NCBI GenBank assembly: GCA_043812095.1 | Contig: JBDRMO010000030.1 | Location: forward strand, 1 to 53,790 | Origin: Candidatus Omnitrophota bacterium | GTDB taxonomy: Bacteria; Omnitrophota; Gorgyraeia; Gygaellales; Profunditerraquicolaceae | Length of the DNA stretch: 53,790 nucleotides | Direction: 5' to 3' | Part shown: one piece after another, positions 32,155 to 33,237 of the stretch | How positions within the stretch are numbered: the first letter of the stretch is position 1 | Layout of the letters: every line of letters starts with the position of its first letter | Program-made: the position numbers and the translations under genes | The notes under the pieces: generated by a model | Told to the model about the DNA's origin: nothing | Databases searched by the model: none | Seen by the model: only the letters and a program-made list of their open reading frames with translations

Positions 32155-33237
32155 ATGAAGGCGATTTTAACGTTGGAGGACGGGAAAAGTTTTAGCGGCC
32201 AGGCCCTTATTCATTGCCATGAGGCTGCAGGTGAGGTTATTTTTAATACAGCGGTAGTGGGCTACCAGGAGATGATCACTGATCCTGCTTCTGCCGGTAA
32301 AATTCTAGTGCTCACTTATCCTTTAATTGGAAATTACGGAGTTGCACCGAAATTTAATGAATCTAAAAAGATATGGCTTGCGGGCTTGGTAGTTAAAGAA
32401 ATCTCTCGTATCTATTCGAACTGGCAAGCTAAGTCCAGTTTTGATGATTTTGTCAAGAAGCATAAGCTTGCGATGATCTATGGTATTGATACGCGAAGCC
32501 TGGCAGTACACCTAAGGCATAAAGGCCAGATTCGCGGGGTTATTTCTACCGAGTGTTTTGATCCGACAACACTTCTGGCAAAAATAAAAAATTCAACCTT
32601 AGGAAAATGCCAGAGTTTATTGCCCAGGATCTCAGTAAGTAAGCCCAAAGATCTAGGTTTACGAAAATCCAAAATACGAATTGCGGTTCTTGATTTAGGT
32701 CTGACAAATAGCATTATCAAGCAGCTCGAGCGGCTAGGGGTATCATTGATTATCTTGCCTTACAATACCAGCGCGAAAGAGATCTTACGCCTAAAGCCGA
32801 AAGGATTGTTAATCTCCGGAGGACCGGAAGAAGACGCCGGATTAAAAGAGGTGACAGAAAGCATAAAGCCGTTAATCGGCAGATTGCCTATCTTCGGCAT
32901 CTCAACCGGCGCTCAGGTTTTAGCCTCTGCATTAGGTGCGAAAATAACTAAGCTGAAACTGGGTCATCACGGCGTAAATTATCCGGTGAATAAACCACCC
33001 TCTTATAAAGGGGATATTACCGTACAGAATCACTCTTGTGTAGTCGATACGGATTCGATCGCTAAGATAAAAAAGATAAAAATTACCGGATTCAATTTAA
33101 ATGATCGCTCAGTTGAAGAATTTGAAAGCAGGCAACTCAGGCTCCTCGCTGTCCAATATATACCGGTAAGCCCCGGATTTAACGAAGTAAACCCGGCCTT
33201 TAATAAATTCTTAACTTATTTAAAAAGGAGCAAATAA
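32155..33237 (+). CDS. carA: carbamoyl-phosphate synthase small subunit with degenerate glutaminase triad
   Basis: N-domain [26 protein letters not shown] and [16 protein letters not shown] replaces GICLGHQ, and VQYIPV replaces QGHPE. Confidence 0.88.

Follow-up and report, generated by a model that had tools for sequence, protein, structure and literature searches.

Bacterial carbamoyl-phosphate synthetase (CPS) is described in textbooks as a glutamine-dependent enzyme, and a CPS that is specific for ammonia and whose glutaminase domain is silent is held to be an innovation of animals (CPS I). The carA-carB gene pair on contig JBDRMO010000030.1 of a Candidatus Omnitrophota bacterium, of which a stretch of 53,790 nucleotides was analysed (the window), raises the question of where a bacterial CPS obtains its nitrogen when the small subunit, CarA, no longer carries the residues needed for hydrolysis of glutamine. 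From comparisons of sequences, gene order and a predicted structure, the enzyme encoded here is likely to be a CPS which depends on ammonia and whose CarA would be a structural pseudo-enzyme, making it a counterpart, in bacteria, of animal CPS I.

The small subunit and its lost catalytic residues

The carA gene and the parts of its product that matter for this question are the following.

32155 to 33237, plus strand: carA, CPS small subunit with a predicted non-catalytic glutaminase-like domain, 360 amino acids (open reading frame, profiles and AlphaFold2 model)
32155 to 32559, plus strand: N-terminal CPSase_sm_chain domain of CarA, residues 1 to 135 (PF00988 on residues 5 to 130), the best conserved part
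32671 to 33234, plus strand: class I glutamine amidotransferase (GATase)-like domain, residues 173 to 360 (PF00117 on residues 178 to 350), triad gone
32902 to 32907, plus strand: Ser250-Thr251 where E. coli CarA has the nucleophile Cys269 and the oxyanion residue Leu270 (phmmer and homologue alignment)
32974 to 32976, plus strand: Val274 at the position of E. coli Gly293, an ammonia-tunnel residue within the GHHGxNxPV motif (valine in 114 of 120 homologues)
33157 to 33168, plus strand: Tyr-Ile-Pro-Val in place of Gly-His-Pro-Glu-Ala, with His353 changed to Ile, Glu355 deleted and Gly352 changed to Tyr (the tyrosine is invariant in the clade)

The protein belongs to the CarA family, as it consists of a CPSase_sm_chain domain followed by a domain of the class I GATase fold (149.5 bits for PF00988 and 101.5 bits for PF00117) and scores above the curated cut-offs of TIGR01368 (336.4 bits, cut-off 307.35) and NF009475 (322.8 bits, cut-off 221). 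A sequence-only reading of the window had claimed that the whole Cys-His-Glu triad of the glutaminase is lost, with Cys changed to Ser, His to Ile and Glu to Val. When the protein was aligned by phmmer to E. coli CarA structures, its GISTGAQ paired with GICLGHQ, in the segment matching PVFGICLGHQLLA, and its VQYIP.VSPG with FQGHPEASPG. Cys269 is replaced by Ser250 (codon TCA, 32902-32904, its position checked on the sequence) and His353 by Ile336 (codon ATA, 33160-33162), both at the codons that had been named; Leu270 is changed to threonine and His272 to alanine. At the position of Glu355 there is a one-residue gap. Val338 (GTA, 33166-33168) stands opposite Ala356 in HMMER and opposite Glu355 in one MAFFT run, and under both placements an acidic residue is absent from the Glu355 column. 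Profile and multiple alignment therefore bear out the changes of Cys to Ser and His to Ile, while the deletion of one residue describes the third one better than Glu to Val does. Instead of the Cys-His-Glu of glutamine-hydrolysing CPS (EC 6.3.5.5), the three triad columns hold a serine, an isoleucine and a deletion.

Residues which form the glutamine pocket and the oxyanion hole in the E. coli structures are affected as well, since Ser47, Gly243 and Leu270 are changed (S47A, G243E and L270T), whereas Gly241, Gln273 and Asn311 are kept. The remainder of CarA had been judged intact, in agreement with the matches to PF00988 and PF00117 and with an undamaged GHHGVNYPV motif. As alanine at the site of Val274 is also found in intact CarAs, this valine is only suggestive of a change in the tunnel. 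The protein is predicted to lack glutaminase activity.

The fold is retained. An AlphaFold2 model of the window CarA (predicted local distance difference test score, pLDDT, 81.5; predicted template modelling score, pTM, 0.84) superimposes on E. coli CarA with a template modelling (TM) score of 0.87 in Foldseek; for the N-terminal moiety of human CPS1 the TM scores are 0.81-0.83. The best match, by sequence as well as by structure, is 1C30_B.

Conservation of the loss and changes in CarB

The same loss is found in the relatives. The homologues examined were the best 120 database matches, with 64-88% identity and, where named, from Candidatus Omnitrophota/Omnitrophica, and the triad is absent in all 120 of them. 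The nucleophile column contains serine in 107, alanine in 11 and cysteine in 2 of these proteins, at His353 the column is hypervariable, with Y, I, C, L, V, S, N, M and others, and Glu355 is deleted throughout (120/120). The replacements S47A, G243E, L270T, G293V, H341E, G352Y and P360F are near-invariant, and Asp45, Gly241, Gln273, Asn311 and His312 are kept. As alanine and also glycine may occupy the nucleophile position, the nucleophile appears to be dispensable.

Despite this, the gene is under purifying selection. Ratios of nonsynonymous to synonymous substitution rates (dN/dS) were calculated by the Nei-Gojobori method for the window against its two nearest relatives, L008 and L009, and amounted to 0.16 and 0.08 for the GATase-like domain, 0.10 and 0.08 for the CarA N-domain, and 0.055 and 0.051 for carB, respectively. 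The mean frequency of the most common residue in the 120 homologues is 0.85 in the N-domain and 0.80 in the GATase-like domain. Across the whole lineage of CarAs without the triad (in the following called dead CarAs) the ratio of GATase to N-domain identity is 0.85, versus 1.07 among three intact CarAs, and over deep time relaxation is somewhat greater in the GATase domain than in the N-domain. Catalytic residues are lost, with the fold kept and dN/dS at 0.08-0.16, which is the pattern of a pseudo-enzyme; together with the 120 homologues this identifies carA as a conserved pseudo-enzyme, neither a decaying gene nor an artefact.

A wider set was made up of the 150 nearest representatives of 50%-identity clusters, which is a query-biased sample; only 75 of them have Cys/His/Glu, and the commonest broken form is GIGLGHQ, with Cys changed to Gly. 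A triad-less carA lies directly 5' of a full carB in a Planctomycetota contig (L005), in the NCBI metagenome-assembled genome (MAG) GCA_002426645.1 (L006), in a pyr-operon contig (L007), in L091, in two MAGs of the anammox family Brocadiaceae (L010 and L056), in a Limnochordia-type contig (L090), and in the cultured Thermosyntropha lipolytica DSM 11003 (L092; FQWY01000027, 3488-7800). The T. lipolytica carA has Cys changed to Gly and His to Asp and stands in the order pyrR-pyrB-pyrC-carA-carB-pyrK-pyrD...pyrF-pyrE. An arbitrary sample of 26 carA genes adjoining carB in named genomes yielded 23 with Cys/His/Glu, two dead ones, both from Brocadiaceae, and one that was unscorable at the nucleophile column. 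What had been presented as the property of one gene is indeed present in this gene, but extends across a large CPS lineage of several phyla. The named carriers of the trait (Brocadiaceae, Limnochordia, Clostridia, Thermosyntropha and Omnitrophota MAGs) are mostly anaerobes of ammonium-rich habitats. In the source databases (NCBI, JGI) these homologues are named 'glutamine-hydrolyzing', and a full-text literature search, with subscription journals outside its coverage, yielded no description of a triad-less bacterial CarA.

The partner subunit is encoded directly downstream.

33237 to 36512, plus strand: carB, full-length CPS large subunit, 1091 amino acids (profiles and end-to-end alignment with E. 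coli CarB)
33882 to 34208, plus strand: CarB residues 216 to 324 with the signature of partners of dead CarA (I216, T232, M234, V249, A258, V265, G279, V300, T324)

CarB reaches 1624 bits with NF003671, contains all domains and aligns over residues 1-1087 with E. coli CarB, and the stop codon of carA and the start codon of carB overlap by one base in TAATG (33235-33239); the sequence-only reading was right in calling CarB full length and the junction preserved. At the gene level CarA is thus found next to a full-length CarB, the pairing of the two proteins being taken from this adjacency.

Eleven CarBs paired with a dead CarA, from Omnitrophota, Brocadiaceae, other Planctomycetota, Limnochordia and others, were compared with 24 CarBs whose carA is intact or unlinked. 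Within the N-terminal carboxyphosphate domain the 24 are invariant at Cys232, Ile234, Thr249, Asp258, Arg265, Thr279 and Ala324. All eleven partners of dead CarA have threonine at 232, methionine at 234 and valine at 249; aspartate 258 is replaced by Ala, Val or Thr, arginine 265 by Val, Thr, Ile or Glu, and threonine 279 by Gly or Ala, and position 216, which is Tyr or Phe in the 24, is Ile or Val. The residues Ala314, Ala251 and Cys232 form the gate of the ammonia tunnel in CarB (PMC8674909; the gate is also described in PMC4655335), and in the window CarB this gate is no longer intact, as Cys232 has become threonine, though Ala251 and Ala314 are kept. Residues placed by alignment around the ammonia gate and the subunit interface lose their otherwise absolute conservation with each dead CarA, which shows, at the level of sequence, that CarB has co-evolved with the dead CarA, including at the gate of the ammonia tunnel. 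Arg265 of CarB and Pro360/His361 of CarA, reportedly the part of the tunnel wall that Huang and Raushel (2000) perforated by mutagenesis, are Val, Phe and Asn in the window.

With the 24 discriminating columns masked, the eleven partners of dead CarA formed one clade in 200 of 200 neighbour-joining (NJ) bootstraps, and one deep CPS lineage with dead CarA spans several phyla. The CarB of L007, with the changes Y216I, D258N, R265K and T279N, falls outside this clade, so at least one further independent triad loss is to be assumed. A single origin of all triad-less CarAs was considered and rejected because of the position of the L007 CarB and because about 21 state changes are required on the NJ tree of CarA, a crude one that is susceptible to long-branch attraction. 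The T. lipolytica CarB, which is not one of the eleven, carries six of the nine changes of the signature (Y216I, I234M, T249V, T279V, M300V and A324T).

Source of the nitrogen

On the proposed mechanism, carA-carB would be the CPS of the pyrimidine pathway in this bacterium, with a small subunit that acts as a pseudo-glutaminase, keeping the CarA fold and the contact with CarB but having lost glutamine hydrolysis. As such a CarA would be unable to hydrolyse glutamine, free ammonia is the most likely substrate of CarB, which would form carbamoyl phosphate from NH3, bicarbonate and two ATP, that is, the chemistry of EC 6.3.4.16 in a two-subunit bacterial enzyme. The ancestral tunnel from the glutaminase to CarB would then be free of constraint, and tunnel and pocket residues of CarA would have changed jointly with the gate and interface residues of CarB. 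CarA may be a structural or allosteric partner and possibly a part of the wall of the ammonia entry path; its retention would fit a stabilisation of CarB and perhaps such a wall role for ammonia coming from outside. Direct use of ammonia would spare the ATP that glutamine synthetase consumes. The sequence-only reading had likewise proposed an ammonia-dependent CPS that keeps CarA as a structural or allosteric pseudo-enzyme, and this proposal is supported by the comparisons made here. In E. coli, mutants whose tunnel is blocked or perforated use ammonia normally (PMC4655335). The GlmS protein encoded in the window, a class II amidotransferase, retains its nucleophilic N-terminal cysteine (MCGI), hence the loss is specific to CPS and the organism has not abandoned glutamine amidotransfer as such. 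E. coli CarB alone is said to form carbamoyl phosphate from ammonia in vivo, going by the title of a 1987 report by Rubino and co-workers that is listed in PMC6245113.

Known systems provide precedents for parts of this reading. Human CPS1 (EC 6.3.4.16), which likewise retains an inactive glutaminase-like domain, has Ser294-Thr295 at the nucleophile and the next position, cannot use glutamine and takes ammonia from solution (PMC4655335); the equivalence to Ser250-Thr251 of the window rests on the same paper, where the loss of glutamine use is attributed to the Cys to Ser change alone. The precedent in animal CPS I, to which the sequence-only reading had appealed, is thereby documented for the human enzyme, including the adjacent threonine. 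An ammonia path along the interface between the N-terminal part of CPS1 and its C-terminal part has been proposed, and its Gln318 at the Gly293 position blocks the ancestral tunnel (PMC4655335); the window CarA also has a larger residue there, namely valine. In contrast to the two reading frames of 360 and 1091 amino acids found here, CPS1 consists of one fused chain of about 1500 amino acids. Because of its two separate reading frames the window CPS is not a member of the CPS I family but would be a functional analogue only, and animal CPS I and the window CPS are independent evolutionary events. CPS1 also keeps the gate cysteine (Cys648) where the window CarB has threonine, and it needs N-acetylglutamate and feeds the urea cycle, whereas the window enzyme sits in a pyrimidine operon and is not known to require an activator. 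CPS1 presumably keeps the triad histidine and glutamate too, while all three residues are gone here.

Frog CPS I is ammonia-specific with an intact triad, the specificity being set by a residue beside the nucleophile (PMC4655335). It resembles the enzyme proposed here in its specificity for ammonia and in the silence of its glutaminase domain, but it keeps Cys-His-Glu and regains glutaminase activity by point mutation, which the window protein could not. Canonical CarAB or PyrAA-PyrAB (EC 6.3.5.5) shares with the window the two genes, the domain content, the stop/start overlap and a Bacillus-type pyr operon, and differs from it in the triad, the glutamine pocket, the tunnel and the invariant gate and interface residues of CarB, all of which are replaced or changed here. 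The C269S and C269G mutants of E. coli CarA mirror the natural proteins, with serine in Omnitrophota and glycine in Planctomycetota and Firmicutes lineages. These mutants (Rubino and colleagues, 1986; PDB entry 1C30) reportedly lose glutamine-dependent and keep ammonia-dependent synthesis. They retain His353, Glu355, the tunnel and the gate, whereas the natural proteins are without them after long selection.

Several points weigh against an ammonia-dependent enzyme. The Km of E. coli CPS for ammonium is very high, and physiological use of ammonia would need a better affinity. Gln273, Asn311 and His312 are retained, so binding of a ligand may persist. Intact carA-carB pairs occur in three MAGs labelled Omnitrophota (L014, L017 and L052), and outside the visible 53.8 kb the genome may encode another carA that is intact, or a different partner that delivers ammonia. 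The trees are NJ trees only. As to the three MAGs, their CarBs form a separate clade with 100% support, together with Aerophobetes and a Planctomycetales MAG. Their carAB genes are not syntenic with the window pair, the contexts being unrelated and non-pyr; these MAGs may represent other Omnitrophota lineages, or the genes a paralogous CPS.

A bypass of the dead CarA, in which a second intact CarA or another glutaminase feeds this CarB and the linked CarA is regulatory or vestigial, would account for the same sequences. Such a bypass gains from the intact pairs in these MAGs, from the window being part of a genome, and from the two CPS systems present in many Firmicutes. It is nevertheless considered unlikely, as the intact loci belong to a different, fully supported CarB clade in non-pyr contexts and no genome with both types is found among the matches listed; the changed gate and interface in CarBs paired with dead CarA would be unexpected if a canonical CarA still channelled ammonia to them, and the TAATG coupling and purifying selection point to the dead CarA as the real partner. 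In the window itself, tblastn found no second CarA, nor is a further class I GATase, an Amt or a GlnA encoded there. An equally improbable explanation is that the glutaminase-like domain has turned into a ligand sensor, in which glutamine or a metabolite related to it is bound but not hydrolysed and which regulates CarB allosterically, the substrate still being ammonia. The retained Asp45, Gln273, Asn311 and His312 and the new Glu243, Glu341, Tyr352 and Phe360, invariant within the Omnitrophota group, would suit a sensor, as would the purifying selection on the domain, and the E. coli C269S enzyme (structure 1C30) still binds glutamine. Across the wider dead lineage, however, the pocket varies, with L, V or C at 273 and changes at 243 and 341; Ser47 is lost, and the relaxation of the GATase domain over deep time, with the lowered identity ratio given above, also argues against a ligand site.

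Still less probable is a new use of the dead domain, whereby these clade-invariant residues Glu243, Glu341, Tyr352 and Phe360 would capture ammonium, or the domain would dock a nitrogen-donating or regulatory partner such as the TIGR00725/SLOG protein encoded next to carA; if true, the CPS would be of a new type, in which nitrogen enters by a different mechanism. An ammonium pocket of Glu243 and Glu341 common to all dead CarAs was rejected, both residues being specific to Omnitrophota. That CarA is still a glutaminase, with a non-canonical catalytic set and for instance Ser250 as the nucleophile, is very improbable, even though the nucleophile position is most often occupied by serine (107/120) and Ser-His-Glu triads occur in some related folds, for the His353 column is hypervariable, Glu355 is deleted in every homologue, Ser47 and Gly243 are lost, His272 is alanine in the window, and E. 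coli C269S is reportedly without glutaminase activity. A nucleophilic role of Ser250 was rejected in view of alanine (11/120) and, in many related lineages, glycine at the same position. The frameshift in the neighbouring pyrK might suggest that carA is a pseudogene in decay or an artefact of assembly or sequencing. This is effectively refuted by 120 homologues with the same features and by the dN/dS of 0.08-0.16; the reading frame is intact and of full length, the fold is predicted with confidence and synteny is conserved.

Gene neighbourhood and significance

The carAB pair is embedded in a pyrimidine cluster.

27036 to 29820, plus strand: pyrR-pyrB-pyrC, upstream part of the cluster (same order in L001, L007 and L092)
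31667 to 32125, plus strand: SLOG/LOG-like gene of the TIGR00725 family (PF18306), 29 nucleotides upstream of carA
37951 to 40770, plus strand: pyrK (frameshifted), a small TauE-like reading frame, pyrD and pyrF, downstream part of the cluster

The order is of the Bacillus style, namely pyrR, pyrB, pyrC, a TIGR00375-like gene, flavodoxin, SLOG/TIGR00725, carA and carB, then fpg, followed by a hypothetical gene, pyrK, the small TauE-like reading frame, pyrD and pyrF, and is maintained in Omnitrophota contigs with a CarA merely 64-67% identical. The TIGR00725/SLOG gene lies immediately 5' of carA in every Omnitrophota locus examined (L001, 9472-9933; L003, 899-1351; L008, 1734-2192; L009, 882-1340), and in L091 a longer PF18306 protein is encoded some 3 kb upstream of the dead carA. 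In the window pyrK covers 37951-38735, with a listed reading frame of 204 amino acids that stops at 38565; the conserved C-terminal Fe-S-binding part (YACGPRSMLKEV, CGIGACLGCVVK) runs on in the +1 frame, and comparison with L008 reveals a 17-nucleotide gap within a repeat-like linker. The break may stem from an error of assembly or be a genuine frameshift. Between pyrK and pyrD a TauE/SafE-like membrane reading frame of 119 amino acids (38736-39095) matches the C-terminal half only of the family profile and has equal size and position in L001 and L008. In the Planctomycetota contig L005 a 311-amino-acid NAD synthase with no glutaminase (CN-hydrolase) domain on record lies directly 5' of the dead carA (7011-7946) and is suggested to be an ammonia-dependent NadE; if true, two ammonia-using versions of usually glutamine-linked enzymes adjoin there.

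Further features of the window lie outside the pyr genes. A probable replication origin region extends over 12000-20000, with parB-parA-yidC on the minus strand followed by dnaA-dnaN-gyrB-gyrA on the plus strand, a switch in the sign of the GC skew near 12-14.5 kb and a 655-nucleotide intergenic gap (13866-14520). The gyrA (20037-22352, 771 amino acids) and the TIGR00375-like gene (29825-31063, 412 amino acids) of the window are intein-free; in the related Omnitrophota contig L001/L002 (1-615, 6822-9299) both gyrA (1263 amino acids) and the MJ0043_C/TIGR00375-like gene (825 amino acids) contain intein and LAGLIDADG domains. A reading frame of 495 amino acids (22568-24055) between gyrA and glmS has no match in Pfam or NCBIfam. 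An operon for a V/A-type ATPase (40913-48093; DivIVA/E-like, DUF2764, and A, B, D, I and c/K subunits) lies 3' of the pyr cluster, as it also does in L001 and L008.

If bacterial CPS with a dead CarA is indeed ammonia-dependent, a systematic annotation error would follow, because dead CarAs pass TIGR01368 and are named 'glutamine-hydrolyzing'. With Thermosyntropha lipolytica DSM 11003 a cultured organism practical for tests is available. The enzyme would represent an independent natural replicate of the transition from CPS II to CPS I and could clarify by which way ammonia from outside gets into CPS and for what reason the small subunit has been retained. Pyrimidine synthesis could then use ammonia without the ATP cost of glutamine synthetase, which would alter models of nitrogen assimilation for Omnitrophota, for the anammox Brocadiaceae and for anaerobic Firmicutes.

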